A stretch of DNA of 64,000 nt. It comes from a virus. The translations under genes and the position numbers were made by a program. Shown in pieces: positions 1-56,912 of the stretch; position 1 is the stretch's first letter; each line of letters opens with the position of its first letter. Below the pieces are notes generated by a model that was given only the letters and a program-made list of their open reading frames with translations, searched no databases and was not told where the DNA came from. Location: the IMG/VR virus record IMGVR_UViG_3300042946_000249. The stretch is one strand, 5' to 3'.

Positions 1-91
1 CTAAACACCCTGTATGGTTCTTGAGGAATCAACGCCACCACAAGGAAATATTCTTTGAGCGTCTCTATGTCATAGATAATTACATTGTCCA

Positions 92-307
92 TTAGTCATC
101 TGTTTTCCAATAGTGATCACATTCTTTCTTCTCCTCATTGTATGGAGGATTAACAAAATACGATTGTCTGTATTCGTTAGGCTTGGCTGTATATCTATAA
201 CAGTCTTCCTTTAGAGGACAATCTTTGCCTTCGCACATTGTTATGTCTGGCATACTATTTCTTTTTAGCGGCTTTCTTCTTCTTAGGTTTCTGCTCACTA
301 GCTTCAA
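92..307 (-). CDS. hypothetical small Cys-rich protein; true start may be the internal Met at 253, which would abut the upstream gene
   Basis: ORF track; CxxxC...C...C pattern; overlaps 255..581 unless the internal Met is used. Confidence 0.3.
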   Translation of the reverse strand: MKLVSRNLRRRKPLKRNSMPDITMCEGKDCPLKEDCYRYTAKPNEYRQSYFVNPPYNEEKKECDHYWKTDD

Positions 308-581
308 GAACCACCTTAATAGCTATTCCCATCATTTGTCTAAATGTGTTATTCTCATCATCATTGTCCATAAGACAAGCAAGAGCTGCTATTAATGTTT
401 GAGGGTCACCTTTTGTTTTCACTGTACACTCTTCTTCAGCATTACATATAATGGTGAGGCGTGCTACTTCTTTTGGATCTTTTTTTTCTGGCATTTGATT
501 AATTTTAAAAGCCCACCCCTGATATGAGGTGGGCTCAAATTTACTTAAATTTACGCAAGCGAACAACTTTTTTGTAATCAT
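255..581 (-). CDS. hypothetical protein with Lys-rich C-terminal tail (EQKPKKKKAAKKK), possibly nucleic-acid binding
   Basis: ORF track; same strand as neighbours; basic tail. Confidence 0.4.
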   Translation of the reverse strand: MITKKLFACVNLSKFEPTSYQGWAFKINQMPEKKDPKEVARLTIICNAEEECTVKTKGDPQTLIAALACLMDNDDENNTFRQMMGIAIKVVLEASEQKPKKKKAAKKK

Positions 582-750
582 CCGAAGGACAATAATACAT
601 CTTGTTATTCTCTACAACAAGTCTATTAGTTCTCTTACGTGTGAATATGGCTTCTATGAGTTTGTTGACATTTGGATTGTCACAATCATCAGAGTAAACC
701 AATGGTCTTACTGGGCTCCATGAGGAGCGGTACACGAGGGTTGCTGCCAT
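541..750 (-). CDS. hypothetical 69-aa protein
   Basis: ORF track; co-oriented with the leftward gene block. Confidence 0.3.
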   Translation of the reverse strand: MAATLVYRSSWSPVRPLVYSDDCDNPNVNKLIEAIFTRKRTNRLVVENNKMYYCPSDDYKKVVRLRKFK

Positions 751-774
751 AAGTGTGTATGCTTTTATATGTGA

Positions 775-1137
775 TTAGAAATAGATGCGAATATGATCAT
801 CATACATTTCTACCTTCCTACCTACGATTGCAGGAGCAGTGTTGACAACTTGCTCTGTTTCAACAGCTGTAGGAACAGTTTCAACAGATATTGTGTCAAC
901 AATAGCAACATCAGCATTAACAGTAGCAACATTATTCTTTTCTACTGTTGGTTTAGCTTTTCTCTTAATCATGTATGTATGCGCTGCTACATAATACAAC
1001 TTGGTCAACATTTGCTTTTCAGTTACATTGTGCTTTGGAGCTAAGCGTTTTGCAAGTTCTTTGATCTTGATTCCATTACGCAGCTCTCTTTTGATTTCTG
1101 TAATTTCTGCTGTCTTAAAAATGCTTCTCCTTGACAT
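775..1137 (-). CDS. hypothetical protein with N-terminal HTH-like segment (IKIKELAKRLAPKHNVTEKQM)
   Basis: ORF track; motif reading only. Confidence 0.4.
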   Translation of the reverse strand: MSRRSIFKTAEITEIKRELRNGIKIKELAKRLAPKHNVTEKQMLTKLYYVAAHTYMIKRKAKPTVEKNNVATVNADVAIVDTISVETVPTAVETEQVVNTAPAIVGRKVEMYDDHIRIYF

Positions 1138-1168
1138 GTGCTTTGATTTTTATTTGTGATTTAATTGG

Positions 1169-1741
1169 TTACCAGATTTCAAATCCTCCACATTTACGGA
1201 GGAATGTTACGAAGTTTGTTACGTGATACAGAGGAGCGCTGTGTGCTGGAAATGCTAATGTACCATCATCAGCCACCACCCCATTATAAAGAATGGTGCC
1301 TATTGGATAGTCTTGGTTAAGCTTTTCTGTCCTATTAGGACCAATAAAGCTACCATTTGCTGTACCCCATGCACCCAAGCATAGATAGAATCTATCATCC
1401 TCATCATGCATATTGGCATTGTTGAGGATCATAAATGCCTCAATAGCATCAGCCAGCATGTCACAATCCTCCTGTGTCTTCAAGCCACTACCACTATTCT
1501 CACCCCAACCTCTTGTATCAAAAGGAAGCTCTGTAGCATGTATAGCCATGTCAGCTATTGCATGAATTGGTCTCCAGCCCCACCAATTACTCCTGAAATA
1601 CACACCAGGATTATTACTATGAAATAGGTCCATAGAGTTAAAATACTGGCTTTTTTCATAATCTGTGGCTGTCTCCCAGTTTGGTTCTTTTGGGCGATCC
1701 CCAACTATTTGAGGATTTATCCCAGCAATGTCTACTCCCAT
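1169..1741 (-). CDS. hypothetical 190-aa protein
   Basis: ORF track; no recognisable motif. Confidence 0.5.
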   Translation of the reverse strand: MGVDIAGINPQIVGDRPKEPNWETATDYEKSQYFNSMDLFHSNNPGVYFRSNWWGWRPIHAIADMAIHATELPFDTRGWGENSGSGLKTQEDCDMLADAIEAFMILNNANMHDEDDRFYLCLGAWGTANGSFIGPNRTEKLNQDYPIGTILYNGVVADDGTLAFPAHSAPLYHVTNFVTFLRKCGGFEIW

Positions 1742-1929
1742 AATTGATTTTTTAACTTTGAATAATCTTCCATCATTTGATTTGCTCTCATTATCCCACT
1801 TCTATCAATAGATAGTCTACCAACATGGAGGTCTCTCATCCATGTATGGAATTTGGGATCTAATTGTGTCTGTGCTCTTTCAGCCTCAATCTCTTGAAGC
1901 CTCTCTAATGTAATGTGCTCTAAGTTCAT
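1732..1929 (-). CDS. hypothetical 65-aa protein (track ORF 1732..2118 trimmed to the internal Met 'MNLEHITLERLQE')
   Basis: The 5' part of the track ORF overlaps 1946..2536 in another frame and is Met/Lys-rich junk; the internal start removes the overlap. Confidence 0.35.
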   Translation of the reverse strand: MNLEHITLERLQEIEAERAQTQLDPKFHTWMRDLHVGRLSIDRSGIMRANQMMEDYSKLKNQLWE

Positions 1930-1945
1930 ATGCTTTTTGTTAGTG

Positions 1946-2536
1946 TTAAGAATTGTCGTCCATATCTGAATCATCATCTTCTTCATCATAATATATTTCT
2001 CCTTCTCCTTTACATACAGGACAGGCTGTGTCTGGTGTAGCACCATATCCTGACCCATTACAATGGTGACATAACCAAGGACCTTCGTCATCATCCTCAT
2101 CCTCATATTCTTCATCATACATCCCTGGAATGGTCATGGTTATCTTGCCTGCGTATAGAATAGGGTTGATTTCCTCCTCATGGGCAAAGTCCCACTCATC
2201 TATCTCAACATCCACATATCCATCCCATTCTGTCAGGAGGAAGTTAACATCACTAAGTTCAACATCTCTGAGTTCATCAATATGGTCACCCTCATCCCAC
2301 CAGCCTATTTCATGCGGTTCAGCAAGCACCTGTTCATCATAAATCAAATAAGGCTCGACGGGTGCACCATGTATAACAATAAACTCTTCCAATGTCTCCC
2401 TAGGAAACTTGTCCAAGGCCCACACTTCTGTATATTCTTTTCGTGTGCCTGGATTAATCTTTGTAATGAACCACATGCCTATCTCTAATTGTTTGGGCAT
2501 GTAGCTTTTGAGTACAAGTTCGACGGTCTGATGCAT
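1946..2536 (-). CDS. highly acidic protein with C-terminal DnaJ-type zinc finger (CHHCNGSG ... CPVCKGEG)
   Basis: Two CxxCxGxG motifs; long Asp/Glu runs (DEEYEDEDDDEG, YYDEEDDDSDMDDNS). Confidence 0.55.
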   Translation of the reverse strand: MHQTVELVLKSYMPKQLEIGMWFITKINPGTRKEYTEVWALDKFPRETLEEFIVIHGAPVEPYLIYDEQVLAEPHEIGWWDEGDHIDELRDVELSDVNFLLTEWDGYVDVEIDEWDFAHEEEINPILYAGKITMTIPGMYDEEYEDEDDDEGPWLCHHCNGSGYGATPDTACPVCKGEGEIYYDEEDDDSDMDDNS

Positions 2537-2538
2537 AA

Positions 2539-2754
2539 CTATTTGTTTTGCAGGTGTTTCTTAATATCTACTTCCTTGAATGTACGCTTCTGTGGACTAG
2601 CTGCACCCATAGGATCTTGTGTATTATCTACACGAACGCATTCGTACAGACCATCTCCTAAGTGCTTCACTACCTTCCAAGCTTGATATAAAGAGCCACC
2701 AGATGTGCCAGCTTCATACCTTTCAATGTGTTTTCTAAAGATTGTTCCTACCAT
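2539..2754 (-). CDS. hypothetical 71-aa protein (track ORF 2539..2877 trimmed to the internal Met 'MVGTIFRK')
   Basis: The trimmed start avoids overlap with 2774..3043. Confidence 0.3.
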   Translation of the reverse strand: MVGTIFRKHIERYEAGTSGGSLYQAWKVVKHLGDGLYECVRVDNTQDPMGAASPQKRTFKEVDIKKHLQNK

Positions 2755-2773
2755 AATTGTGCATTTTAAAGGA

Positions 2774-3043
2774 TTATTGTTGTTCAGATTTTCTTTTTGG
2801 TGTGTGATAGTATTTCTTGAGCCATTCAAATGGCTTGAGTGCGTTGGTGAACGGACCACCAAACACAGGATATTCATCCTTCATATACTCTTCCTCAATA
2901 TCATCCCACGGATCATATTGGTCAAAGAATTCACCACACTCATTACACAACACATTTATAACTGGCATATGCTTTTGAGCGTAGTCATAATTGAAGTGGA
3001 AGTTCTCTTTCTCTCCACACTGAGGGCAAATTGTCTGTTTCAT
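2774..3043 (-). CDS. zinc-ribbon protein (CPQCG ... CNECG) with acidic C-terminal half
   Basis: Two CxxC pairs 30 aa apart. Confidence 0.5.
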   Translation of the reverse strand: MKQTICPQCGEKENFHFNYDYAQKHMPVINVLCNECGEFFDQYDPWDDIEEEYMKDEYPVFGGPFTNALKPFEWLKKYYHTPKRKSEQQ

Positions 3044-3059
3044 AACTTCTGTGTTTGGA

Positions 3060-3460
3060 CGTGTTTTAGTTCCTGATTTGGCCGTTTATCGCTCATTTAT
3101 GCCTTACCAAAACCCATTTATCGCTCACATATGAGCGATAATGTCCGTTATAACGGACAAAAATGAGCTATAATGTGCATTATATAGCACATTTGTTGTG
3201 CACTTTATACCCTTCCGCATATAAAATCACATGATTGTGCAATATTATACCCTTTAGCGTATAAAAATCACAGAATAAGTGTCAAATTGGTGATATATTT
3301 CCAATTTACGTCATTTATAACGTGAAACTGGTGTCTCAAAGGCCTGATTGGAAATATATTTCCACTTTTACGTACGTAAAAATGTGCTCAAGCTACACTT
3401 TTACGAACATAAAAATGGAACAGCCCATATTTCAGGACTGTTCCAGAGTTACAGCACTTA
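3060..3460. promoter_or_regulatory. control region dense in perfect palindromes and direct repeats
   Basis: Perfect palindromes: 24 nt TTATCGCTCACATATGAGCGATAA (3118-3141), 16 nt GTCCGTTATAACGGAC (3143-3158), 16 nt TGGAAATATATTTCCA (3349-3364), 16 nt TTTTACGTACGTAAAA (3366-3381). Direct repeats: TTATCGCTCA x2 plus one inverted copy; about 27-nt repeat TTATACCCTTnnGCrTATAAAAaTCACA at 3204-3230 and 3246-3273; ATATATTTCCAnTTTaCGT x2-3. Confidence 0.6.
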
Positions 3461-3752
3461 GTAACCCAACCCTTCGAGTTCATATGCACTAGCCTCAACG
3501 ATTATATTACCGTGAGACACTGTGTACATAAATATTATTTGCATGTGATTGGCAAGCTTTTGAAACAGCTTGAACTCTGTGGGCGTAAATGTGAGCTTTT
3601 TCATTTTTGAAGGATTTATTGTGTTGATTAATAAGGACGATTTGCTTTGCGTACCACCTGTTCCCAGGTCATTCTACCCTTGCAGCCATACCCTGTGGTC
3701 CTGCAAGACGACATAAATATAGCAATAACTGCTAATAGTAATAACTTTCTCA

Positions 3753-3902
3753 TTAGTCTATAATGTTTAATAGGTCAGCAATAGATTCCATGCACTCATC
3801 GAAGTATTTAGCGTCCCACATAATGACAGACACTAATGCATTCCATATCATAACAGGAAAACATGCAGCCAAAGAGACAGCATAATAAATAATCTTGAAC
3901 AT
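3753..3902 (-). CDS. small (49 aa) single-TM protein MFKIIYYAVSLAACFPVMIWNALVSVIMWDAKYF..., not in the ORF track (<60 aa)
   Basis: Hand translation of the reverse strand; one hydrophobic helix. Confidence 0.3.
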   Translation of the reverse strand: MFKIIYYAVSLAACFPVMIWNALVSVIMWDAKYFDECMESIADLLNIID

Positions 3903-3916
3903 AATCTATTGATTTT

Positions 3917-3960
3917 TAATTAGTTAATAAAAAGAGGGGCCAGGATAGACATCCAGCCCC
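3917..3960 (-). terminator. intrinsic terminator for leftward transcription
   Basis: GGGGCCAGGAT-agac-ATCCAGCCCC stem; on the minus strand it is followed by UCUUUUUAUU. Confidence 0.5.
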
Positions 3961-4194
3961 GTTCTGATGCTTGCCATAATATCTTTAACACCCTAATTTA
4001 TCCAACTTACAGGTGTTGTGGCTGTCCCTATTGCTAGGTTAGGAATAGTCATTCGTCCTCACGAGGTCAAGCTGACTGGCTTAGGTGTTCTCCCTATACA
4101 CCAATGTACGTTCCCATATGGCTATCACACCATTTCTCATCATATTGGGTATACTATCTGTGGATTATACAGAACGTATCTTGAAAGAGCCCTG

Positions 4195-4428
4195 TTACAG
4201 GCTCCTATTGTTCCATATTCTGTACACAGCCTCATCATACCTCACCAAATGTCTTTTTCTAATACCAGCCCTTGACTCATGCAAGAAGCCCATTGTATAT
4301 ATACAAAGACACTCAACCATATGATCAACAGACATATAACTTGTCTGATTGATAAGACGTGTAATCTCATTGTCTGGAAGTGTATTAATAACAACTCCCT
4401 TAGGAATACCAATTGTTGCTAATTGCAT
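4195..4428 (-). CDS. hypothetical 77-aa protein
   Basis: ORF track; co-oriented. Confidence 0.3.
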   Translation of the reverse strand: MQLATIGIPKGVVINTLPDNEITRLINQTSYMSVDHMVECLCIYTMGFLHESRAGIRKRHLVRYDEAVYRIWNNRSL

Positions 4429-4621
4429 GGCTATATGCTTTAAATGGTTAGTTAATGCTATATTTATTCTCTAATGTTTTGATTCACCTAGTTACCAATT
4501 TACCCCTCAAAAGTGTCTATGGGTCACACACCATCTCTCTAACTCACAGAGAATCAATGTGTTATGCTCTGAATTTATCCTACACCCACCCAAGGAATGG
4601 TGCATTCCCCACCCTTATATA

Positions 4622-4660
4622 TAATAAGGAAGAGAGTCCTCCAATTAAGGAAGACTCTCT
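4622..4660 (-). terminator. hairpin terminator 8 nt downstream of gene 4668..5072
   Basis: AGAGAGTC (4631-4638) / GACTCTCT (4653-4660) 8-bp stem, then a U/A-rich tract on the minus strand. Confidence 0.4.
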
Positions 4661-4667
4661 GTGTTTG

Positions 4668-5072
4668 TTAGAAGCTTGCGTTAGCAAGAGCGTTGATTGC
4701 TGACTCGCTGAGGCCTGCTGTGCTTGCCTGTGTGCGAATCTCTTGTTGAATCTCGATGTCCAACAATGCACTATCAGCGTGTGCTTGCTTGATTTCTTCG
4801 CGTGTCTTGAATGCACTGAGTGCTGTAAGACGACCTGCTGTAACAGCAACACCATTAGCGTCAACCAATGGTTTACCATTAGCGTCAAGTTGACCAATCT
4901 CTTTCATTGTACCAATGGTATAGAATGGGAACTTAACATCTTCTGGTTTAGCCCAACCCAATGCTTGCATTTGGCGTCCGAAGATGTGAACTCTCTCACC
5001 TAACGCTGTGTAGCCTGAGAAGTTACCGTTTGCTGTGAATGACCCGTTGTTGATGACATAATTCTTGTTCAT
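4668..5072 (-). CDS. hypothetical 134-aa protein
   Basis: ORF track; flanked by its own terminator and an upstream repeat motif. Confidence 0.5.
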   Translation of the reverse strand: MNKNYVINNGSFTANGNFSGYTALGERVHIFGRQMQALGWAKPEDVKFPFYTIGTMKEIGQLDANGKPLVDANGVAVTAGRLTALSAFKTREEIKQAHADSALLDIEIQQEIRTQASTAGLSESAINALANASF

Positions 5073-5143
5073 CTGTTTTGATTTTTATTGTTAATAATAA
5101 AGAGACAATGTGTATAAGAGGATTTGGGACGGAATGATTTGGT

Positions 5144-5167
5144 AAAAAAAGGGCACAAAGGCCCTTT
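5144..5167 (-). terminator. intrinsic terminator (hairpin flanked by A7 and T-rich runs; could act bidirectionally) immediately after gene 5169..5372
   Basis: AAAAAAAGGGC-acaaag-GCCCTTTATT; on the minus strand the stem is followed by UUUUUUU. Confidence 0.5.
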
Positions 5168-5168
5168 A

Positions 5169-5372
5169 TTACCTATTCTCTTCCATCATTCTACCATGAG
5201 CGTGTTCCCACTCTTCCTCTTTAATCATCTTTATTCTGTAAAGAATAATAGTGTCAATGGCTGACTTATCCTCTGTGGTGATGATTCCTCTATACTCTAG
5301 TTGTATGGTCCAGAGTAGTTCGAATAATTTTTCTGTGGCTGCTTTCATGTTATTTGTGTTTTGATTAAGCAA
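5169..5372 (-). CDS. hypothetical 67-aa protein
   Basis: ORF track; terminator directly downstream. Confidence 0.4.
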   Translation of the reverse strand: MLNQNTNNMKAATEKLFELLWTIQLEYRGIITTEDKSAIDTIILYRIKMIKEEEWEHAHGRMMEENR

Positions 5373-5754
5373 TAAGACTTTCCCAATGACTACTGTTCAA
5401 CACTGTATCAATCCTCACGATGTGCTTCTGTTCTGTTGGTTTAGCATAGATTTTCTGTGTCACCTTGCTTAACCTATTAGTAATCAACATGTTACCATTA
5501 TTCTCCATCTTAACATGCACTTTCTCAAGGTTGAGAAGGCTAATTGGAAGAATAATGATTGGCAGTCCTGTTGACTCTTGAATAACAACCTCACAATCAC
5601 TCACCTTCTTATCCAAGCCTAGCATCTTCCATGAGCCTATCATGTAAGGATTGACAAAGAAATGTGTTATCCTGTCCAAAGGATTAACAACCTGATTACT
5701 GTTGAAATCGTAGAAGAATTCCATAACAATGATATGGTTGCCTGTACACCACAA
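5365..5754 (-). CDS. hypothetical 129-aa protein
   Basis: ORF track. Confidence 0.5.
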   Translation of the reverse strand: MWCTGNHIIVMEFFYDFNSNQVVNPLDRITHFFVNPYMIGSWKMLGLDKKVSDCEVVIQESTGLPIIILPISLLNLEKVHVKMENNGNMLITNRLSKVTQKIYAKPTEQKHIVRIDTVLNSSHWESLIA

Positions 5755-5924
5755 GGTTTTAGTTATTTAAATTGAGAGATTGTGATTGGTTTCTTCGTAT
5801 CTTTCTACAGGCACGCCTGCTTCCTCTCTATCGCTGTTTTGCAGCTCACGAGGCTAATCAACCACTATCTCTCAAATTGTGCAAAAGGATTTGGGACGGA
5901 ATGGGAATCAAGGGAATTACACCC

Positions 5925-6095
5925 TTAGAGTTCTGCCTTTGGGAAGTATTTGAGAACGTGTTCTACGCTATCAAACCCATCACCTGACAGTGTACCATCT
6001 GCCTTAATCAGTGTGTACATCCCATCCTCTCTAAGAAACAAGAAAGGGTATTCTCTATCGTTGGTGGCGAACAGTGCCTTACGATACTTGTCCAT
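5925..6095 (-). CDS. small 56-aa protein MDKYRKALFATNDREYPFLFLREDGMYTLIKADG..., not in the track
   Basis: Hand translation; replaces the antisense track ORF 5772..5987. Confidence 0.3.
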   Translation of the reverse strand: MDKYRKALFATNDREYPFLFLREDGMYTLIKADGTLSGDGFDSVEHVLKYFPKAEL

Positions 6096-6670
6096 AACTT
6101 ATTGGTTTAAAATGTTTTAAGAAAAATGAGACAGTTTTATGACTTGTCTTAGGTCTTGTGCCTGCTAAGGCTGTTTTAGGTATTACGTGCAAAAGCAATA
6201 ATGCACAACCTGTAATTGAGTTGCATTGTTGAGTGGATTTGTTAGTGGGGGTACCCCCAACCGCTCAAAGTGTACTGGGGGGTTTGAGATGGAGTACCCT
6301 CCCCTCCCATGCACATGATAGGTTTTTGGGTGTAGGGGGGATGTTTCACGTGGAACAATGTATGGGGGGATAGTAAACCTATAGGTTTACATATGGGGGT
6401 GTTTTGTCAAGCTATAGGTTTACAAAAAAATTTTGTTGGTTATATGGAGGATGTCTTGTAACTTTGGGGCGGAGGGTGGGTTAGGAGAATGATACATCCT
6501 AGGGACAGATAGTCAATTGATGGGGATGAGTGGTGAACGGATGACTCATGAGCTAAGAATATAAGAATGGGGAAGGTGTATCTGGTTGAAAAAAAGGATA
6601 TAATATAGCAATAGGTTAAAAGATTGTATTTGAATATGTTAGAATAACCCCCTATCTTTGTAACAACTAT
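6096..6670. promoter_or_regulatory. non-coding G-tract and palindrome-rich region between the leftward block and the rightward virion block
   Basis: At least 10 runs of G3-7 on the + strand; perfect palindromes GGGGGTACCCCC (6247-6258) and AAACCTATAGGTTT (6375-6388); direct repeat CTATAGGTTTACA (6379-6391 and 6412-6424); three GTAC-centred G/C elements at 6247-6300. Confidence 0.45.
6629..6660 (+). promoter_or_regulatory. candidate Bacteroidota sigmaA-type promoter (TTTG, 20 nt, TAtcTTTG)
   Basis: -33-like TTTG at 6629-6632 and -7 box TATCTTTG at 6653-6660, 10 nt before the ATG at 6671. Confidence 0.3.
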
Positions 6671-7018
6671 ATGACGGTGATATTACAAAAACTGAAGAAA
6701 GAGGAAGCTGACAGCTACAGAGTGGCTGAAAGGTATTACACCATACTTTCTGCAGTGAATGATTTGAAGCTGACACAAAGGGAGATACAGCTCCTTGCCT
6801 TTACAGCTATTAGGGGTAACATCTCCTATGCTAATATACGCAAGGATTTCTGTGACACGTATGGCACCACAAATCCTTCTATAAACAACATCATCTCCAG
6901 GCTGAAGAAGATGGGGGTCTTGGTGAAGGATGGGACAAAGGTGAAGGTGAATCCCAGGATAGTATTAAACTTTGAAAATGACATCACCCTTGAAATCAGA
7001 CTTGTTCACGGACAATAA
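6671..7018 (+). CDS. hypothetical 115-aa protein, first gene of the rightward block
   Basis: ORF track. Confidence 0.5.
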   Translation: MTVILQKLKKEEADSYRVAERYYTILSAVNDLKLTQREIQLLAFTAIRGNISYANIRKDFCDTYGTTNPSINNIISRLKKMGVLVKDGTKVKVNPRIVLNFENDITLEIRLVHGQ

Positions 7019-7436
7019 ACCTGTGAGCCTGTCTGTTAAAGACTGGATCATTAGAAAACTGGCGCCTAAGATGCTGCTTGGTGAGAAAACAATCGAGGCT
7101 GTCATCAATCACCAGTTTCAAGAAGCCAATCTAGCGCTAGCCAAGAATAAGAGCTTGGAAATCAGTGGGTTTGGAAAGTTCTTCTTCAATGATGGGAAGG
7201 CTGTCAAGCAGATGGAGAAATACGAGAGTCAGAAAGCTCTGTTCGAGAGCAGGCTCCTAGACGAAACACTGACAGACCAGAAGAGGAAGTCTTACGAGCT
7301 GAAGCTTCAGATAGCAAAGGATTGCATAAGAGATTTAAAACCAAGAATGTATGCTTTCACAGATTTACGAGGGATGGAGGAACAACCTTCTGCCCCCAGA
7401 GAAACTGAAGACAGCGATATTAGAGACGAGCAATAA
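6972..7436 (+). CDS. possible HU/IHF-like DNA-binding protein; start uncertain (Met at 6972 or a downstream Met)
   Basis: Motif LEISGFGKF resembles the HU/IHF GFGxF signature; the preceding helix (IEAVINHQFQEANLALAKNKSL) fits, but the RNP beta-arm motif is absent. Confidence 0.4.
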   Translation: MKMTSPLKSDLFTDNKPVSLSVKDWIIRKLAPKMLLGEKTIEAVINHQFQEANLALAKNKSLEISGFGKFFFNDGKAVKQMEKYESQKALFESRLLDETLTDQKRKSYELKLQIAKDCIRDLKPRMYAFTDLRGMEEQPSAPRETEDSDIRDEQ

Positions 7437-8674: not shown

Positions 8675-10698
8675 GTGAGCTTATAAGCATAGACTACAAA
8701 GACTGGTTTATTAACCAGGGGCGTCTGCCTGACCGTCAGTCTGCAGAGTATAAGCCATTTTTTGACTTTCATAAAGAGATATGTCTGAATGGGTGCATGA
8801 TGAACGGAACATATATCAATCCGTTTCTATATTGGCACCTAAATGTTTGGCATACAGAGGTGGATGTTGTAGATGAAAGAGGACGCATCTTCCAAAAATA
8901 TGCAAATCCCCTGTTACGTGATAACGAATGGATTGTGACAAATGAGATAGACAGGGCACAACAAGAAAAAAAGGGCTTGGTGATACTAGGAATACGACGT
9001 TTTGCCAAGTCTGTTTTAGAGGCTTCTTACATAGGGTGGGGCGCAACATTTGATGAAAACTCCCAGAATGTGATCGCTGGGTTAAACGCCCCCGATATAA
9101 AGCTGATCACAGATAAGCTGGACAAGGGCCTCAACTTTTTGCCTGAAGCATGGAGATGGCAGAGAGTGGAGGATAATTGGAAAAACCAAGTCACCCTAGG
9201 TATCAAGACTCGTGGAGGAGAACGTATACCGTTCTCTCAAATCCTCATCCGTAACTTGGATGAAGGTAATAACGAAGAGGCTATTGCAGGTACCAAACCT
9301 CGTAAACTAATTATTGACGAGATTGGTAAGGGCAACTTCCTCAGAGGCTTTCAGGCAGCTGTGCCTGGTTTCACCACTCCGTACGGATGGGGATGTTCTC
9401 CTCTCCTGACAGGAACAGGTGGTGATATGAAGAAATTTATGGACGCTAAGTCCTTAATGTTTGACGCAGACAACTTTAACTTCCTTGCTTATAACAATGA
9501 AAAAGATGAGAAACGTGTTCATGGCTTGTTTATTTCGTATAAGTATAGAATGGAAGCTAAGGAAGAAAGCACGCTTGGCGAGTTCTTAGGACAGCCTGAA
9601 GGAAGCGATCTACACAACGTTAAAATGTTGGTGAGCAACGAAGAGAAAGCTCTTGAAATCACCACATCCAACCTAGAACGCTTGAAGAAGGCAGGAGATA
9701 GGGTGGCCTATCTAAAAGAAAAGATGTACTACCCGCTTGAAGTGGATGACATCTTCCTGAATGAGGACACAAACATATTTGACATTGAAGCAGCTAAACG
9801 TCAAAAGGGTAGACTGCTTAATCAGGGGCGTACAGGCACTCCTGTTATTTTGTTTCATGATGGAGAGAAAATAAGTCACGAGTTCACAGACAAACAACCA
9901 ATAACCAACTTCCCTCTCAAAAATAGTGACTTAAAAGACGCTCCTGTTGTTATATACGAGTTCCCTATCGAGAATCCTCCATATGGACTTTATGTGGCAG
10001 GAGTTGACCCGTATAGACAAGGACAAGCTGCATACAGCACCTCTCTAGGTTCTGTGTATATTTATAAGAGAATGCACGACATCACTGGTGAGAAATATCA
10101 GGATATGTTCGTAGCTTCGTATTGTGCACGTCCTGATAAGAAAGAGACTTGGGAAGAACAAGCCAGATTTCTTATTAAGTATTTCAACGCACGTACGCTC
10201 TGTGAGAATGATGACATCTCCTTCATAGAATATATGAAAGCAAAAGGAGATGCACACTACCTTGAGAAACAACCTGATTGGTTGAAAGAGGTGGTGCCAG
10301 GCACCACGGTGAAGCGTGAGTATGGGGTGCACAGAAGCTCTGACAAAATCAGAGACTATCTACACAACTGCCTCAAGAAGTATATGGAGGAAGTAGTGTA
10401 CACCGAGAAGGATGAAGATGGTAACATCACCAAAGAGGTGCTTGGAGTGTCAAAGGTTTTTGATCCTGTTCTACTGGAAGAGATAATTCAGTACAACGAT
10501 CAGGGTAACTTTGACCGTATCATTGCTGCAGAACTTGCTATTGCTCAGGCTCTTAAGATGGACCCTGTGCTTGGTAAGGTGGGAGGATCAGCTGACCCTA
10601 GAGTGAGTGCAATATTCAAACCTAACAAGAAGAACATGTTGTTCACAGAATCTCGTGGGTTATTTAATAAAGTGAAAAAAAGTAAACTTTTTATATAA
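8671..10698 (+). CDS. terL: terminase large subunit
   Basis: Deviant Walker A G-I-R-R-F-A-K-S; Walker B KLIIDEIG; RNase-H-like nuclease motif YVAGVDPY; 675 aa. Confidence 0.85.
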   Translation: MSELISIDYKDWFINQGRLPDRQSAEYKPFFDFHKEICLNGCMMNGTYINPFLYWHLNVWHTEVDVVDERGRIFQKYANPLLRDNEWIVTNEIDRAQQEKKGLVILGIRRFAKSVLEASYIGWGATFDENSQNVIAGLNAPDIKLITDKLDKGLNFLPEAWRWQRVEDNWKNQVTLGIKTRGGERIPFSQILIRNLDEGNNEEAIAGTKPRKLIIDEIGKGNFLRGFQAAVPGFTTPYGWGCSPLLTGTGGDMKKFMDAKSLMFDADNFNFLAYNNEKDEKRVHGLFISYKYRMEAKEESTLGEFLGQPEGSDLHNVKMLVSNEEKALEITTSNLERLKKAGDRVAYLKEKMYYPLEVDDIFLNEDTNIFDIEAAKRQKGRLLNQGRTGTPVILFHDGEKISHEFTDKQPITNFPLKNSDLKDAPVVIYEFPIENPPYGLYVAGVDPYRQGQAAYSTSLGSVYIYKRMHDITGEKYQDMFVASYCARPDKKETWEEQARFLIKYFNARTLCENDDISFIEYMKAKGDAHYLEKQPDWLKEVVPGTTVKREYGVHRSSDKIRDYLHNCLKKYMEEVVYTEKDEDGNITKEVLGVSKVFDPVLLEEIIQYNDQGNFDRIIAAELAIAQALKMDPVLGKVGGSADPRVSAIFKPNKKNMLFTESRGLFNKVKKSKLFI

Positions 10699-13280
10699 TG
10701 GCTATCATTAGGTATACAAAAGATGCTACAATTAGGTATGCATATTTAAATATATTCCCTGATCAGTTCAAAACTGACAAGGAAAAGCAGGATGAGAGTT
10801 GGATAAAGAACACCATGGACTACTTTGCAAACAAGGCATATGCTGAATATGTAAAGAACCGTGACACCTTTGTCAAAAACTATGACTTAATTAAAGGTAT
10901 TCTGAGGATGGAAGACTTCTATCAAGAACCTCAGGTGAAGAGCTTTACAGATATGATGACAGCTGATCTTCAGCTTCCTGCGTATGTAAAGATGTATTCC
11001 ATCATGACCACACCAGTGAACGAGCTGGTAGGTGAAATCACAAAACGCCCTGACACATTCAGGGTGAAAGCGTTTGATGATGACAGTAAAGCTGAAGAGC
11101 TACAATTTAAGACAGACATTCTCCAGCAATATGTAATTGGTCAAGCTAAACAGAAAATTGTTCAGCAGGCTGCAATGCAAGGTGAAGAGATTGATGAAGA
11201 AGAGTTGCAACAGCTCACCATGGATCAAGTGAAAGATGTGCTTGACAGCTACACATCTGTAGCTGAGAAATGGGCTAACCACGTACTCACCTGTCAGAAG
11301 GCTGAGTTTAACCTGAAGGAAAAGAGCGAAGATGCATTTCGTGATTTGCTAATTTCTGGAAGAGAATTTTACCACATTTATGAAGATAACTCAAAACTTG
11401 GATTTAATATTGAGGTGGCTAACCCCAAGAACACTTGGTTTCTTACAACTCCTGATAGAAAATGGATCTCTGATCCTACAGGTAGAGCTCAGGGTGCTTA
11501 TGCTGCTGGTACGGTACAGGTTATGGAACTTTCAGAAATCATTGAGAGTATTCCTGACCTAACCAAAGAAGAAATTGATCATCTAAGAAGTTCTCTCCAA
11601 GACTATGGACTAATTAATGTCCGTGAATCAAATTTGGGTAATCCTGATGCAATACCTGGTACAGATTCAATTATGTACGATACGTTTGATCCACTGGTCC
11701 TTCAAACCCGTATGATTATCGAGAGTGAAATGAAGGAGAACAACGATGGTCTAAAAGACTTCTTAGGACTTACATCTAATGTAAGCTCATTTGGATACAA
11801 GTATGTTGTTGTTCGTTCTTATTGGATAAGTAAGAAAAAGATTGGTAAGGTCATTTATCTAGATGAACTAGGCAATGAACAATCTGTCCTAGTAGATGAG
11901 AATTACAAATCTGGCACCATCCCTACACAAGAATCTATTGAATGGGGTTGGATTAACCAGTGGTATCAGGGTACAAAGATTGGACCAGACATCTATCATA
12001 TCAAACCGTTCAAGCTTCTTAACTATTGTCCAATCATTGGTACAACATTTGAGGTGAAGAATACAGAGGCAAAGAGTCTGGTTGACTTGATGAAGCCTTT
12101 CCAGGTGTTGTACAACGTATGTATGAACCAGCTTTACAAACTCCTTGAGAAGGAAGTGGGTAAGGTGTATTTGACATCCATCAGGCACATTCCTGTTCCA
12201 AAGGATGGTGATGCTCAAGATGCTCTTGACATCTGGGAAATGGAAGCACGTAACAGAGGTGTTGTCTTTATTGACGATAGCCCTGAGAACTTGAAGAGTC
12301 CTTCTAGCTTCAACCAGTTTAGAGACATTGACCTCACACGTACGCAGGAAATACAATCTCGTTACACACTAGCACAACAACTCAAGAACGAATGTTGGGA
12401 GCTCGTGGGTATGAGTAAGCAACGTATGGGATCTGTGGCAGCTAGTGAATCTGCTACAGGTGTAAATGCAGCTGTTCAACAATCTTATTCTCAAACAGAA
12501 CCTCTGTTTGTAGCACACGAATATATCATGGGCCAGCTCTATCAATCAATTATAGATGCTGCTCTATATGTAGAATCCAAGAAGCCTCAATCCACTCTCT
12601 CTTACATTACAAATGAAGGAGAAGCTGCTTTTGTACAGGTGAATGGATCTGACCTTAAATTCCGTGACCTGAAGGTGTTCTTGACAAATCGTCCTGAAGA
12701 TAAGCAAATGTTTGACGAGCTTAGAGGACTTTCTCAGGCTGTTATCCAGAATGGTGGCTCTCTCTACGATGTTATTGAGCTTTACAGCACCAAGTCTATG
12801 AGAGCTATGAAGAAGGTGTTTAAAGAGTTGAGAGACAGACAAATGCAAATGCAAGATCAGCAAATGCAAACTCAACAGCAACAGATTGACCAGCAAAGAG
12901 AAATTGCAGCTGCTCAGCTTCAACAGGCTCAGCTTCAGAAAGAGCAAGACATTGCTAATGAGAACTATCAGAACGAACTGGACAGAATTAATAAGAAAGA
13001 AATCGCTCTGATTGCTGCTGAATCAAAAGCAGGTCCTCTCTCTGATGTGGATGAGAGTGGCACCCCTGATGTTCTAGAGATTAACAAACTTGTTGCTGAA
13101 CAATCTCGTACAGCAAGAGACTATGAAATGAAAATGGCAGACATTCAAGGTAAGAATGTCCAGAATCTTCAGAAGCTTGAGATTGAAAGAGAGAAGCTGA
13201 AGGTGGCTAGAGAAAATCAAAAGAACGACCTTGAGATAGCAAAATTGAACGCTAAGAACCGAGGTGCAAAATCTAAATAA
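10698..13280 (+). CDS. putative portal protein (860 aa) with Gln-rich C-terminal coiled coil
   Basis: TAATG overlap with terL; size and position only. No motif could be verified by eye. Confidence 0.55.
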   Translation: MAIIRYTKDATIRYAYLNIFPDQFKTDKEKQDESWIKNTMDYFANKAYAEYVKNRDTFVKNYDLIKGILRMEDFYQEPQVKSFTDMMTADLQLPAYVKMYSIMTTPVNELVGEITKRPDTFRVKAFDDDSKAEELQFKTDILQQYVIGQAKQKIVQQAAMQGEEIDEEELQQLTMDQVKDVLDSYTSVAEKWANHVLTCQKAEFNLKEKSEDAFRDLLISGREFYHIYEDNSKLGFNIEVANPKNTWFLTTPDRKWISDPTGRAQGAYAAGTVQVMELSEIIESIPDLTKEEIDHLRSSLQDYGLINVRESNLGNPDAIPGTDSIMYDTFDPLVLQTRMIIESEMKENNDGLKDFLGLTSNVSSFGYKYVVVRSYWISKKKIGKVIYLDELGNEQSVLVDENYKSGTIPTQESIEWGWINQWYQGTKIGPDIYHIKPFKLLNYCPIIGTTFEVKNTEAKSLVDLMKPFQVLYNVCMNQLYKLLEKEVGKVYLTSIRHIPVPKDGDAQDALDIWEMEARNRGVVFIDDSPENLKSPSSFNQFRDIDLTRTQEIQSRYTLAQQLKNECWELVGMSKQRMGSVAASESATGVNAAVQQSYSQTEPLFVAHEYIMGQLYQSIIDAALYVESKKPQSTLSYITNEGEAAFVQVNGSDLKFRDLKVFLTNRPEDKQMFDELRGLSQAVIQNGGSLYDVIELYSTKSMRAMKKVFKELRDRQMQMQDQQMQTQQQQIDQQREIAAAQLQQAQLQKEQDIANENYQNELDRINKKEIALIAAESKAGPLSDVDESGTPDVLEINKLVAEQSRTARDYEMKMADIQGKNVQNLQKLEIEREKLKVARENQKNDLEIAKLNAKNRGAKSK

Positions 13281-13810: not shown

Positions 13811-13930
13811 AGTGATTTACATTAATGCTATATTATATGTGAAAAACATTCATATAGATGCATAACTCTTTGCTATTCAATAATCTCTGACTATTTTTAC
13901 ACGCGTAAAACCAATTTAAACAAACTACAT

Positions 13931-15249: not shown

Positions 15250-16803
15250 ATGGCAATTCAAACAATCCCAGGTCTAACTGGCTTCACGTATGCTCGTGTC
15301 GCATCTATGGACAAGCGTGCTGTGGGTAAGCTAACTGACGCTAACCACCTGGAGAGCTTTCACTCAACTGAGCCTGCTGATTACGATAAGAAAATCATCA
15401 GCCTCTACACACAGAGCTCTCTTTACAGCAACGACTTTCTTGACATGATCAACAAAAGCACGCCTTATTACATTGATAATAATAGCGATGCTTGGAAATG
15501 GCAAGTAGCTGTTCCCTACAAATTCCCTAAGATTATCGACATCCCTGCTGCTACAGCTGAGCTGAGCAAGCCTGGTATCGATGGTCAAGAGTTCCAATTG
15601 GTAATTGACACAAACGAGTTCTCTAAGAACGCAATCGTTTCTGTTGGTTCTCGCCAATATGGTCCTCGCTTTTACGTTATTAAGGATCCAGTTCCTTGGA
15701 ACATGGGCTTCCTTTATAGCTTCACTTTGGTTACAGACAATCCAACTGTAGACTTCGTTAGCTCTACCTTCTTGCAAGTGGGCATTGAACTTGAGTTGGT
15801 TGATGCTGCAATTGGTGAGTTCGATCAAGATCTTTTAGGTCTTCCTCGTTTGGGTGAGCAAATCACAATGTTTGAATCTTTGGGTTCTGCATATGGTTTT
15901 GAGCACAAAATCACTGAGTGGGCTGATGACAAAATGATGCGTGACTCTGCAGGTCGTCCTTTGGACATCCTTGTATATGCACCTCAGCGTCGTAACCAAC
16001 TTCCTTTAACTCGTAACGATGTTAAATGGGAGCCATTTATTGAGTTCTGGATGCGTAAGTCTATGCTTGAGTTGAAAGTTAAGCGTATGATTTGGTCTCG
16101 TCCTGGTACTGTTAAGACTAACGGTAGCAAGCAAGAACTTAAGCGTACCTCTGCTGGTGTTTACCACAGAATGCGTAATAACGGTAACCTTGTTCAGTAC
16201 AACCGTGGAGAATTCACTGCAAACTTGATTCGTTCAGTGTTTGGTGACTTGTTCTATCGTCGTGTGGATGTTAAGGACCGTCGTGTTAAAATGTACACTA
16301 ACGAAGCAGGTTTTGACGTATTCCAACAAGCTTTGAAGACAGACGCTTTGAACAGTGGTCTTACCTTCATGGCTGATTCTGGAAACCGTTACATGCAAGG
16401 AGAAGGACAACACATCACTTACAACTTTGCATTCGATGCAATGGTAACTCGTGAGACTGGTCGTGTTGAACTTATTCACTTGAAAGAACTTGACCTTCCT
16501 CAAACTAACCTTGAATTCGGTCAGAACAAGAAGAGCACTCCAGTATTTATGGTATTCGACGTGTCTCCAATGTCTGATGGTTCTTTGGTTAATAACATCC
16601 GTGAAGTTCGTATGAAGGGTGCACCTTCTATGACTTGGGGTTATATCGATGGAACTCGCCACCACTTAGGCTTTGCTAAGTCTCAGGGTATGAGCTCTGC
16701 GAACAAATTCCCAGGATACGAAATCTGGATGAAGGATCGTTGTGATGTATTCATTGAGGACTTGTCTCGTACAGTTCTTATTGAGGAAATCCCACAATTC
16801 TAA
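15250..16803 (+). CDS. putative major capsid protein (517 aa)
   Basis: Position. Strong highly-expressed codon signature (Arg almost exclusively CGT/CGC, versus AGA in the neighbouring giant genes). Followed by a stable RNA structure. Confidence 0.55.
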   Translation: MAIQTIPGLTGFTYARVASMDKRAVGKLTDANHLESFHSTEPADYDKKIISLYTQSSLYSNDFLDMINKSTPYYIDNNSDAWKWQVAVPYKFPKIIDIPAATAELSKPGIDGQEFQLVIDTNEFSKNAIVSVGSRQYGPRFYVIKDPVPWNMGFLYSFTLVTDNPTVDFVSSTFLQVGIELELVDAAIGEFDQDLLGLPRLGEQITMFESLGSAYGFEHKITEWADDKMMRDSAGRPLDILVYAPQRRNQLPLTRNDVKWEPFIEFWMRKSMLELKVKRMIWSRPGTVKTNGSKQELKRTSAGVYHRMRNNGNLVQYNRGEFTANLIRSVFGDLFYRRVDVKDRRVKMYTNEAGFDVFQQALKTDALNSGLTFMADSGNRYMQGEGQHITYNFAFDAMVTRETGRVELIHLKELDLPQTNLEFGQNKKSTPVFMVFDVSPMSDGSLVNNIREVRMKGAPSMTWGYIDGTRHHLGFAKSQGMSSANKFPGYEIWMKDRCDVFIEDLSRTVLIEEIPQF

Positions 16804-37393: not shown

Positions 37394-37457
37394 CTAACTC
37401 AGTTATAGCGATTTACCAAAACTCGTTATAGCTCTTGGAAATTATAATTATTCATAT

Positions 37458-37465: not shown

Positions 37466-37480
37466 CTAACTTAATGTACA

Positions 37481-56904: not shown

Positions 56905-56912
56905 TCTAAGAC

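Follow-up and report, generated by a model that had tools for sequence, protein, structure and literature searches.

A cluster of dyad-symmetric boxes among the probable early genes of an environmental crAss-like phage may serve as a modular cis-regulatory spacer

In a 64,000-nucleotide stretch of viral DNA (IMG/VR record IMGVR_UViG_3300042946_000249; hereafter, the window), a gene-free, non-coding stretch of 414 bp (positions 3044-3457) within a leftward block of small genes carries a dense array of dyad-symmetric boxes. We favour the reading that phage or host DNA-binding proteins bind at this modular array and so control leftward transcription, and put this forward as plausible but tentative. 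The source genome is an environmental crAss-like phage of the virulent type and encodes a virion RNA polymerase, a 3870-aa DFDID protein. By analogy with phages phi14:2 and crAss001, in both of which the opposite-strand block is early and is read by the virion polymerase (bioRxiv 10.1101/2020.03.07.982082; PMC8375218), the leftward block is probably the early block, read by the injected enzyme; the array sits at a transcription-unit boundary inside it.

The control of early transcription in crAss-like phages is poorly explained, and the searchable literature yielded no account of Crassvirales origins or of regulatory repeats in this group. The array offers a concrete, conserved non-coding element of the early block, in a lineage of widespread freshwater or environmental crAss-like phages. 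By itself, this uncharacterised regulatory spacer is of specialist interest and of a kind that is not surprising. Its defined boxes (E1, the 32-nt units and E6, described below) are directly usable as probes for binding proteins, transcription starts and origin mapping.

The dyad symmetry of the region lies far outside what chance would produce. Inverted repeats with arms of at least 8 nt and spacers of at most 4 nt occur four times in the 414-bp gap, whereas 2000 dinucleotide shuffles of positions 3044-3457 averaged 0.05, and none of these shuffles matched the observed level on any of four dyad-symmetry measures. The entire 64-kb window has only 20 inverted repeats with arms of at least 8 nt and spacers of at most 8 nt, and three of its four zero-spacer inverted repeats (arm at least 8 nt) lie inside the array. 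When about 30,000 windows of 300 nt, drawn from the 64-kb window and 80 related loci (L numbers below), were ranked, the array scored best (20, against a 99.9th percentile of 12.6), with one window of L094 tying it for the top score. The array sequence is 100% identical in three independent metagenome contigs from different samples (L231, L232 and L234), so an assembly artefact was rejected, and three further contigs are 96-97% identical to it. JGI samples 3300042894, 3300042469 and 3300020512 contain the exact sequence. The first-pass annotation had allowed that the region might prove to be part of a coding gene in a corrected assembly; with three identical contigs the assembly is correct, and the region is non-coding. 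A DNA similarity search gave no match among GenBank phages, and an exact 24-mer had no match in IMG/VR.

Two minus-strand genes flank the array. Upstream lies a gene for a conserved 48-aa protein (3458-3604), whose terminator abuts the array. This strong intrinsic terminator hairpin (3416-3445, minus strand), an 11-bp stem containing six G-C pairs and then the run TTTTTAT, closes the leftward unit upstream, forms the right boundary of the array and is kept in most array-carrying relatives. Downstream, the array reaches as far as the start codon of the following leftward gene, which encodes an 89-aa zinc-ribbon protein (2774-3043). The region had been described as lying just past a leftward terminator and upstream of the zinc-ribbon and acidic-protein genes, which our analysis bears out. 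In this genome the array is 2.6 kb into the leftward block, after a terminator and not at the head of the block.

Read from the gene-proximal side, the array begins with a tandem motif on the minus strand (3044-3083; GGCCAAATCAGGAACTAAAACAC, then GTCCAAACACAGAAGTT, then directly ATG), which is related to CCAAATCA..CCGTCCCAAATCC found after the terminators at about 5133 and 5900. E1 box a (TTATCGCTCA, 3086-3095, plus strand) lies 32 nt from its direct copy at 3118, where the element P1 starts (3118-3141). P1 consists of two inverted E1 boxes (TTATCGCTCA-CATA-TGAGCGATAA), with 10-nt arms and a 4-nt, non-palindromic centre, and a TTACCAAAAC box (3104-3113, plus strand) stands between E1 boxes. 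Two composite units follow, both in minus-strand reading. In Unit B (3132-3159), E2 (TGTCCGTTATAACGGACA, 3142-3159), a perfect 18-mer containing a 16-mer cited earlier, is fused to E1 box c (TTATCGCTCA, 3141-3132). In Unit A (3164-3193), the near-palindrome E3 (AATGTGC-ATTATATA-GCACATT, 3172-3193; 7-nt arms, 8-nt spacer) is fused to E1 box d, a degenerate fourth copy (3164-3173; TGAGCTATAA, on the minus strand TTATAGCTCA). Together, the four E1 boxes form a larger dyad centred on 3129.5.

The right half of the array has other elements. The plus-strand direct repeats E4a (TTATACCCTTCCGCATATAAAATCACA, 3205-3231) and E4b (TTATACCCTTTAGCGTATAAAAATCACA, 3245-3272, with an inner dyad TTATAC/GTATAA) are 40 nt apart and have the pattern TTATACCCTT..GCrTATAAAA(A)TCACA in common; E4-related copies are present in L046, L093 and L090. 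E5 (ATTGGAAATATATTTCCAC, 3347-3365) and E6 (CACTTTTACGTACGTAAAAATG, 3363-3384) contain the perfect 16-mers TGGAAATATATTTCCA (3349-3364) and TTTTACGTACGTAAAA (3366-3381), which are separated by 1 nt. Each has a degenerate copy: E5' (ATTGGTGATATATTTCCAAT, 3286-3305), 61 nt from E5, and E6' (CACTTTTACGAACATAAAAATG, 3396-3417), whose form in relatives is ACACTTTTTCAAAC. Finally, an inverted repeat read directly from the sequence, TTTACGT-N8-ACGTGAA (3305-3326), has its TTTACGT half-site in common with E6. E5', E6' and this inverted repeat are absent from the first-pass annotation. The elements that it did report, four perfect palindromes of 16-24 nt together with direct repeats, are all where it placed them, except that the 24-mer, P1, is not perfect, its 4-nt centre not being palindromic.

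The array thus holds at least five unrelated box families of two to four copies each, many of them dyad-symmetric, and the 32-nt phasing of some boxes equals three helical turns. The E1 word GAGCKATAA occurs six times in the 64-kb window against 0.62 expected, with four of the six inside the array. A search for the array's box families elsewhere in the window, other leftward intergenic regions included, found none, and the families are likewise confined to a single locus in the relatives' loci. A dispersed repeat of the REP/MITE kind was rejected on this confinement; it was also dropped, together with CRISPR-repeat mimicry and a parS array, on spacing, box heterogeneity and single-locus distribution.

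Comparison with relatives separates what is conserved from what is not. The left half of the array (3044-3200) is 93-95% identical in L101, L102 and L093, in which the flanking genes are 71-92% identical, and boxes are retained in phages with only 83% TerL identity. Among relatives, 28 of 37 E1 boxes lie inside homologous arrays, and the 32-nt directional tandem unit is conserved with the polarity of the neighbouring leftward genes wherever orientation is known. The most widely conserved palindrome is the E6 16-mer (perfect in 13 loci, at most two mismatches in 25). The E5 16-mer is perfect in the window's own clade only (six loci), E2 is perfect in six loci with an E2-like GTNNNTTATAANGRAC in 25, and the P1 box pair is found in 21 loci, its arms being fully complementary in only seven. 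The gene-proximal motif TTCCTGATTTGG is present in 25 loci. Half-sites vary independently and show no compensatory changes that preserve pairing, as expected for protein-binding half-sites. In this genome, perfect palindromy is an idealised form, specific to the lineage, of boxes whose counterparts in relatives are quasi-symmetric, and not a conserved feature. The first-pass annotation had named palindromes not conserved among relatives as evidence against its proposal, and here the result cuts both ways: the boxes are conserved, but perfect symmetry is mostly limited to the window's own clade, TTTTACGTACGTAAAA excepted. The alternative centres of P1, CATA and TATG, could suggest flipping of a hairpin; this was rejected because an intermediate, CATG, exists and two transitions suffice.

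No fixed geometry of the array is conserved, because among close relatives its modules change order or orientation, disappear, or are interrupted by inserted genes, and they are replaced or absent even at 94-97% TerL identity. For instance, L016 (97% TerL identity) is without E1, E2 and E3, that is, the three left-hand palindromes, and in L043 the E6-E6' module is inverted relative to the window. Genes are inserted beside or inside the array in L016, L023, L027 and L034, among them a gene of L034 that we take, by eye from the translated sequence, to be GIY-YIG-like. One and the same hairpin-plus-leader is joined to differing genes in relatives, and a hairpin of the form GCATGAn..TTCATGC is conserved between array and gene in most of them.

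This turnover could mean that the array arose chiefly as a by-product when cassettes were shuffled. Short terminator, leader and promoter modules would then have gathered at a recombination hot spot between small early genes of fast turnover, and quasi-palindromes would have been 'perfected' by template-switch mutation without any collective function. The variation in module order, orientation and content among close relatives, the common leader before differing genes, the gene insertions and the restriction of perfect symmetry to one clade would all fit. A parallel exists in the promoter-early stem-loop (PeSL) cassettes of T4-type phages, reportedly described by Arbiol, Comeau and Krisch in 2010: in both cases stem-loop modules border small variable early genes, are reshuffled, and have the same leader with different genes. 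Unlike PeSL cassettes, however, the array has no sigma-70 early promoter, and its modules are gathered in one array instead of standing before each gene. We consider this by-product reading unlikely, since the left half outconserves the neighbouring coding sequence, the boxes persist at the lowest TerL identity given above, and the E1 box is reused at a second, strongly conserved promoter block.

That second block is at 37400-37465 on the plus strand, where an upstream block, GTTATAGCGATTTACCAAAACTCGTTATAGCTC, precedes a host-type promoter, TTGG-N19-TACATTTG, which serves the operon of an 881-aa protein and the virion RNA polymerase. The whole element is conserved in most of 23 distinct related loci, and the upstream block is conserved even where the following protein is only 42-60% identical. 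An E1 box (TTATAGCTC; family TTATMGCTCA) and TTACCAAAAC are common to the array and to the block upstream of the 37.4-kb -33 element; at 37.4 kb TTACCAAAAC is likewise flanked by E1-like boxes, at a spacing that differs from that in the array. The apparent likeness rests on short words. Since both E1 and TTACCAAAAC are common to the two loci, one factor may couple two transcription programmes; a link from E1 to the upstream block of the polymerase-operon promoter, if real, would point to a single factor coordinating the early and middle programmes.

The 37.4-kb promoter also shows what the array is not. Its layout (-33 TTG, -7 TAnnTTTG) matches that read upstream of phi14:2 g070, g075, g108 and g110. 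In 3044-3457, by contrast, neither strand has a -7 box TAnnTTTG or a -33 element, so the array is not itself a tripartite promoter of the phi14:2 type, in which -33 and -7 elements stand about 19-21 nt apart; positive controls for the -7 box were 6653, 37458 and phi14:2 itself. Host-type -7 boxes are missing from all intergenic regions of the leftward block, a scan for sigma-70 promoters gave a count no higher than in shuffles, and no recognisable promoter of any known class was found in the array. In L016, L023 and L027 a gene lies about 17 nt past the terminator, which leaves no space for a promoter; transcription therefore probably reads through the terminator, and a promoter within the array is not required. 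In L087 and L091, the entire leftward block starts with the array, and a promoter of some kind must be located there.

These observations can be accommodated if dimeric or oligomeric DNA-binding proteins, encoded by the phage and possibly also by the host, recognise the boxes; their binding would set the level of transcription into the downstream genes. Two routes can be imagined. Bound proteins could occlude or assist a promoter of non-host type in the gene-proximal 40-90 nt, or they could block or license read-through from the upstream unit. A factor that binds E1 at both loci may in addition couple the programme of the array to that of the virion-polymerase operon. The conservation of the boxes, a left half better conserved than the flanking genes, the 32-nt phasing and the recurrence at 37.4 kb make an operator array, in a loose sense, the best-supported reading. 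Parsimony counts against it, since five different box families would call for several proteins.

The operator array originally proposed was of the kind used by a phage repressor or Cro-like switch. The part of that proposal that concerns clustered candidate protein-binding sites agrees with the conserved, phased and recurring boxes, but a CI/Cro-type lysogeny switch is not supported. The flanking genes at 3458-3604 and 2774-3043 are both on the minus strand, so they do not provide divergent promoters between a repressor and a cro-like gene. Neighbouring proteins have no matches to HTH_3, S24 or Cro, the boxes belong to at least five unrelated families and not to a single operator consensus in several copies, the phage is of the virulent crAss-like type, and the 64-kb window, which leaves about 45 kb of the genome outside it, shows no integrase or other lysogeny module. 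Known phage operator clusters include lambda OR/OL (CI, Cro), P22 immI Arc/Mnt and Aca-repressed anti-CRISPR promoters. The array resembles these in having several dyad sites of 16-24 bp within a few hundred bp upstream of early genes, on one helix face and with independently varying half-sites. It differs from them in its several box families, in the absence of an adjacent repressor, cro or aca gene, in its co-directional flanks, and in having neither a lysogeny module within the 64-kb window nor an overlapping sigma-70 or Bacteroidetes-type promoter.

Candidate DNA-binding proteins are encoded nearby: a 115-aa winged-helix protein (6671-7018) and an HU/IHF-like protein (6972-7436). Searches of the winged-helix protein and of the 120-aa protein encoded at 775-1137 against PDB sequences gave nothing significant. 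The 48-aa neighbour was rejected as a cognate repressor; its model is a confident (pLDDT 92) beta-alpha-beta-beta-alpha mini-fold, which is neither RHH nor HTH, with no DNA-binding fold detected and no significant PDB match.

The winged-helix gene also bears on another suggestion of the first-pass annotation, that the region is a replication origin. The boxes would then be iterons for a phage initiator such as the winged-helix protein, and the AT-centred palindromes would aid melting, possibly with transcriptional activation. Lambda ori, which is bound by the O protein, is a phage origin of the iteron type, and the array is similar to such origins in that its boxes are repeated, dyad-symmetric and regularly spaced (32-nt helical phasing of the four E1 boxes) and in having a weakly O-like winged-helix gene 3.3 kb away. 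The matches of this protein are weak and below curated thresholds: Phage_rep_O was matched at E=1.2e-4 (23 bits; cut-off 28.7), and a PHROG family named 'replication initiation protein' at E=0.005. The nearby HU/IHF-like gene would also suit an origin, as would a GC content of 36%, against 38-42% over most of the phage, and the copy number of an exact array 15-mer (CACATTATNGCTCAT), for which an IMG/VR scan gave mostly chance matches and one copy per near-complete related contig.

An origin nevertheless seems quite unlikely, and we treat it as possible but disfavoured. The array is only mildly AT-rich and has no discrete AT-rich unwinding stretch. DnaA boxes (TTATNCACA) are lacking in the 414 bp (no exact copy, and one with a single mismatch against 0.5 expected), as are IHF consensus boxes. 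Unlike iteron origins, moreover, the array lies neither in nor beside a replication gene, and its boxes fall into five families instead of one iteron and are dispensable in close relatives; in relatives, modules are replaced or absent and genes are inserted within the array. The cumulative GC-skew minimum and the strand switch are near 6000 and not near 3300, skew being confounded with the direction of transcription. A better position-conserved cluster of repeats and palindromes is found near 6230-6430, at the strand switch and skew minimum; it comprises G-runs, two copies of a 30-nt direct repeat, a perfect palindrome of 18 nt and another palindrome that resembles parS.

The palindromes could also act as RNA, within a leftward structured leader or non-coding RNA whose hairpins control stability, processing, pausing or translation. 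The predicted sense transcript folds at -112.6 kcal/mol (z=-6.9 against shuffles), somewhat ahead of the antisense (z=-5.6), and the GCATGAn..TTCATGC hairpin between array and gene in most relatives would be in keeping with such a role. In phi14:2, where early intergenic RNAs are abundant, two long early-strand intergenic regions out-transcribe most genes (bioRxiv 10.1101/2020.03.07.982082); those long regions contain no comparable palindrome cluster. However, any palindromic DNA folds well on both strands, perfect palindromes with zero spacer are atypical of RNA hairpins, module order and orientation change among relatives, and a search for compensatory substitutions came up empty. Imperfect repeats from 18 arrays contain 175 mismatches, of which 114 are wobble-incompatible on both strands, with 38 compatible in the sense and 23 in the antisense direction. 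The strand asymmetry of the wobble-compatible mismatches was considered as an RNA signal, which is weak, as most mismatches fit neither strand. Rfam gave no match beyond chance level even at E<=1 and no gathering-score match in the window, and no tRNA was found in the array by a tRNA/tmRNA search. We therefore give an RNA function a small chance of being right.

A further alternative sees the same palindromes as DNA elements: the injected virion RNA polymerase would enter or start at them in a structure-dependent way, supercoiling having extruded them as cruciforms or hairpins as in phage N4. The hairpin promoters of the N4 virion RNA polymerase have 5-7-bp stems, 3-nt loops and conserved bases. 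Both systems combine an injected RNA polymerase with hairpin-capable elements in the early region, but the polymerase families are unrelated, the array's stems of 8-10 bp and loops of 0-4 nt differ from the N4 format, and its pairing potential is not conserved in relatives. The AT-rich palindrome centres would favour extrusion, the 32-nt units hold one polarity relative to transcription, and the leftward block, as noted, is without intergenic host-type -7 boxes. In vitro, the phi14:2 polymerase, gp66, accepts only single-stranded or denatured DNA as its template, and the transcripts of the virion polymerase have no common upstream sequence motif (bioRxiv 10.1101/2020.03.07.982082), both of which would be compatible with structure-dependent starts. 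Against such promoters, none of the elements precedes any other leftward gene of the window, L043 has the E6 module in inverted orientation, and in this genome the array is within the block, after a terminator, and not at its head. On balance, we judge this explanation very unlikely.

Most improbable of all, to our minds, is a related proposal in which the array would be the engagement site on the incoming genome for the injected virion RNA polymerase or for the ejection machinery, its AT-centred palindromes extruding under supercoiling to give the polymerase the single-stranded template it needs. If true, it would explain the missing sequence motif of crAss early promoters. A variant is a pause in DNA entry like that of T5. 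In T5, too, an untranslated region rich in repeats and palindromes, the injection-stop region (iss) at the boundary of first-step transfer, follows the first small set of early genes, and it is defined by eight ordered DnaA boxes (bioRxiv 10.1101/866236). The array, unlike the T5 iss, has no DnaA boxes, and where it lies with respect to the putative genome end differs from one relative to another; there is no hint of a two-step injection in crAss-like phages.

With regard to the genes that our preferred binding-site array would control, the zinc-ribbon gene beside it is specific to the lineage, most relatives having the hairpin, leader and other genes in its place, and the downstream genes in L233 are without Pfam annotation. 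The zinc-ribbon gene encodes a two-module protein, and relatives found through it are too distant and have other contexts. In one of these, L001, the genes upstream resemble, as judged by eye, genes of thymidylate metabolism.

Between the leftward zinc-ribbon gene, which starts at 3043, and the leftward 48-aa gene, which stops at 3458, lies a 414-bp gap, hereafter the array (3044-3457), that is real, statistically exceptional, selectively maintained and non-coding. Sequence inspection and a repeat search recovered all elements listed in the first-pass annotation, but its ‘24-nt perfect palindrome’ (P1, 3118-3141) is actually a pair of 10-nt arms flanking a non-palindromic CATA. The arms are inverted copies of a box termed E1 (GAGCKATAA / TTATMGCTCA). 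The annotation had not listed a fourth E1 box, TGAGCTATAA, at 3164-3173, the degenerate second copies of the palindromes TGGAAATATATTTCCA and TTTTACGTACGTAAAA, or a repeat TTTACGT-N8-ACGTGAA. Together, the four E1 boxes make up a larger dyad centred at 3129.5, in which two boxes face leftward and two rightward, with the members of each pair 32 nt apart.

This density of palindromes and repeats is far beyond chance. For arms of at least 8 nt and spacers of at most 4 nt, four inverted repeats were observed against 0.05 expected, a number reached in 0 of 2000 shuffles. The array contains three of the four zero-spacer palindromes in the whole 64 kb. When ~30,000 300-nt windows drawn from this phage plus 80 relatives were scored, it came out top, tied with one window of the relative L094. 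As the identical 414 bp occur in three independent contigs from different samples, the array is not an assembly artefact.

Relatives were collected as 80 loci from a TerL-based IMG/VR scan (TerL identity 83-97%), 14 from a pattern scan of metagenomes and 4 from an exact-protein look-up, and about 25 of these loci carry a homologous array. In three of them (L101, L102 and L093), the left half (3044-3200) is 93-95% identical to that of the window, whereas the 48-aa gene is 90-92% and other neighbouring genes are 71-79% identical, which indicates non-coding DNA under selection. Other modules take the place of the right half in the same three loci.

By these comparisons, perfect symmetry of the palindromes is not the conserved feature. 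Perfect copies of the E2 18-mer (3142-3159) and of the E5 16-mer (3349-3364) are restricted to the clade of the window (6 loci), and E2 becomes GTGACTTATAAAGGAC and similar forms in relatives, without compensation. The P1 box pair occurs in 21 loci, only 7 of which have fully complementary arms; the variable position of the arms can be C-G or A-T, and also C-T, A-G, A-C or A-A. Of 175 mismatches counted in the imperfect repeats of 18 arrays, 114 fit wobble pairing on neither strand, and the only widely perfect palindrome is TTTTACGTACGTAAAA (13 loci). Conservation falls instead on a directional unit of 32 nt, approximately GTnnnTTATAAnnnnCAC(A/T)TTAT-nGCTCAT on the leftward strand, which is present as a tandem pair with an inverted E1 box after it. 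The lack of conserved pairing weakens a further, improbable reading, in which the virion polymerase would use the array as an entry site that depends on structure.

Comparison among relatives further identifies the array as modular and plastic. One locus (L043) has a changed module order, with the module of E6 (3366-3381) and its degenerate copy inverted. The closest relative by TerL, L016, has a short array without E1, E2 and E3 (AATGTGC-N8-GCACATT, 3172-3193 in the window). In L016, L023 and L027, leftward genes are inserted between terminator and array, beginning ~17 nt past the terminator T-run, which implies read-through. In L034, the array is split by a gene (about 620-1130, minus strand) that has its own host-type promoter, TTTG-N19-TACATTTG, and whose translated sequence, judged by eye, contains a GIY-YIG-like motif at the N terminus and an XRE-type HTH at the C terminus; this insertion points to use of the array as a landing site by a homing-type element. 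In two loci with TerL identity of 83%, L087 and L091, the leftward block opens with the array, which there adjoins the divergent region.

The gene-proximal end varies as well. Most relatives have GGCCAAATCAGGAAGT, a conserved hairpin (GCATGAn..TTCATGC) and an A/T-rich leader before various unrelated genes, whereas the window and L108 instead carry a tandem GnCCAAAyCAsrAAsT directly before the ATG. In the window's lineage, the zinc-ribbon gene (2774-3043, minus strand) replaces the hairpin, leader and adjoining gene; the N- and C-terminal halves of its 89-aa product occur separately in different IMG/VR phages (loci L001-L015). A related word, CCAAATCA..CCGTCCCAAATCC, follows the terminators at ~5133 and ~5900 and is kept in relatives. 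This word is a candidate for a non-host promoter or start region. So is CATTCCGTCCCAAATCCTnTT..ACA..TTG, a candidate non-host (early) promoter motif with three minus-strand copies (5106-5136, 5873-5903 and 6266-6296), two of them just past terminator-like hairpins upstream of leftward genes and two conserved in L016, L030 and L039.

Pfam matches identify a P22-like portal (10698-13280), a Crassvirus major capsid protein (15250-16803) and a crAss muzzle protein (26177-31792). Small leftward genes, mostly without annotation, fill 1-6100, and rightward genes extend from 6670 to ~56400, with a sign change of GC skew near 6000. The 3870-aa ORF at 40132-51744 is, by its sequence, a crAss-type virion RNA polymerase: at residue 2980 it contains DFDID, the catalytic motif of the virion RNA polymerase gp66 of phi14:2 (bioRxiv 10.1101/2020.03.07.982082), a much shorter protein. 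phi14:2 has an early block, opposite its structural genes, that is transcribed by the injected polymerase; a common promoter motif was not found there, and two long intergenic regions yield abundant RNAs of unknown function (bioRxiv 10.1101/2020.03.07.982082). The organisation of crAss001 is similar to that of phi14:2 (PMC8375218). By analogy with these two phages, we infer that the leftward block is early. Promoter content supports this reading: the plus strand has host-type Bacteroidetes promoters (TTG/TTTG, 19-21 nt, TAnnTTTG) at 6653 and 37458, and on the leftward strand the block's single -7 box is intragenic (536-543). The same layout is found upstream of phi14:2 g070, g075, g108 and g110.

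A scan for the -7 box ruled out a host-type promoter in the array, which also has no tRNA or Rfam match. Action at the RNA level would be compatible with its strong predicted fold (z=-6.9 for the sense and -5.6 for the antisense strand) as well as the precedent of phi14:2, but covariation gives it no support.

The array is connected to a promoter elsewhere by E1. GAGCKATAA occurs 6 times in the window against 0.62 expected, with 4 copies in the array and one at 37426; apart from the latter and one coincidence in coding sequence, the array's box families are absent from the rest of the window. The copy at 37426 sits in GTTATAGCGATTTACCAAAACTCGTTATAGCTC, immediately upstream of TTGG-N19-TACATTTG; 37400-37480 is a strongly conserved tripartite promoter (upstream block, TTGG, TACATTTG) preceding an 881-aa gene at the head of the polymerase operon. 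The block is kept in most of 23 distinct related loci, even at 42-60% protein identity, and shares TTACCAAAAC with flanking E1-like boxes with the array (3083-3127). Within 10 kb either side of TerL in relatives, 28 of 37 E1 matches fall inside arrays. These observations suggest a common binding factor for the array and the 37.4-kb block.

Host-type promoters of rightward genes are preceded by another conserved box, ATAATATAGCAWTA (6590-6660, and in reverse at ~13815-13840 and ~56430-56455). At 6.6 kb it reads ATAATATAGCAATAGG, TTGTATTTGA, 20 nt and TATCTTTG; it is near-invariant among relatives and similar to the right half of E3.

The best-supported reading of the array is a cis-regulatory spacer of putative protein-binding boxes at a transcription-unit boundary. 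Its anatomy fits this reading: it is flanked by an upstream terminator and a downstream gene start, its half-sites are phased and vary independently, it is conserved above the flanking genes, it heads the leftward block in some relatives, and it has one box in common with a promoter-upstream block. Such phage regulatory regions are a known kind; unusual here are the many box families, their cassette-like shuffling, and perfect palindromes as the idealised form in this lineage.

The first-pass annotation had proposed a repressor/Cro-like switch or a replication origin. A CI/Cro switch is not supported, as both flanks are transcribed the same way, no repressor, cro or integrase gene was seen in the 64-kb window, and there are at least five box families. 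An origin is possible, with genes for an HU-like protein and for a winged-helix protein of weak Rep_O similarity at a distance of 3.3 kb, but is disfavoured: the array has no DnaA boxes, its boxes are heterogeneous, its modules are dispensable in near relatives, and a repeat/palindrome cluster with a better conserved position lies at the skew minimum (6230-6430). This latter region, between the leftward and rightward blocks, contains G/C homopolymer runs, two copies of a ~30-nt direct repeat (GGGGG..TTGTCAAGCTATAGGTTTAC), a perfect 18-nt palindrome GTAAACCTATAGGTTTAC (6373-6390), and the palindrome TGTTTCACGTGGAACA (6343-6358), for which relatives carry GTTCCACGTGGAAC. TGTTTCACGTGGAACA is one mismatch off the parS consensus, TGTTNCACGTGAAACA. 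Many relatives' contigs end in the G-runs. This divergent stretch could be an origin, a pac site or a genome end, or just an assembly break point.

The 48-aa protein (3458-3604, minus strand) is conserved, with a predicted beta-alpha-beta-beta-alpha mini-fold (pLDDT 92); the predicted fold and PDB comparison gave no significant match, family assignment or hint of DNA binding. ORF-poor stretches of the early block lie at 3925-4190 (minus strand) and 4430-4668. The former lies between two terminator-like hairpins and is reminiscent of the intergenic RNAs of phi14:2. Its predicted folding does not exceed that of shuffled sequence (z=-0.95), and Rfam gave no match to it.

At the other end of the window, 61 Gly-X-Y triplet runs in one frame (56900-60200) point to collagen-like repeat protein(s), probably fibres. 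These repeats account for higher GC content, strong GC skew and long spurious ORFs on both strands (57320-58621, 57382-58548 and 58685-59575). A Gly/Ala/Ser/Asn-rich repeat protein runs from ~63300 to the window end. Finally, several leftward start codons have a leader word, AAAAATCAA, 8-11 nt upstream (1135-1154, 3903-3925 and 5070-5089, minus strand). Relatives show this word as TAAATCAATTAnTT ahead of the ATG, and it may serve to signal translation initiation in this phage-host system.
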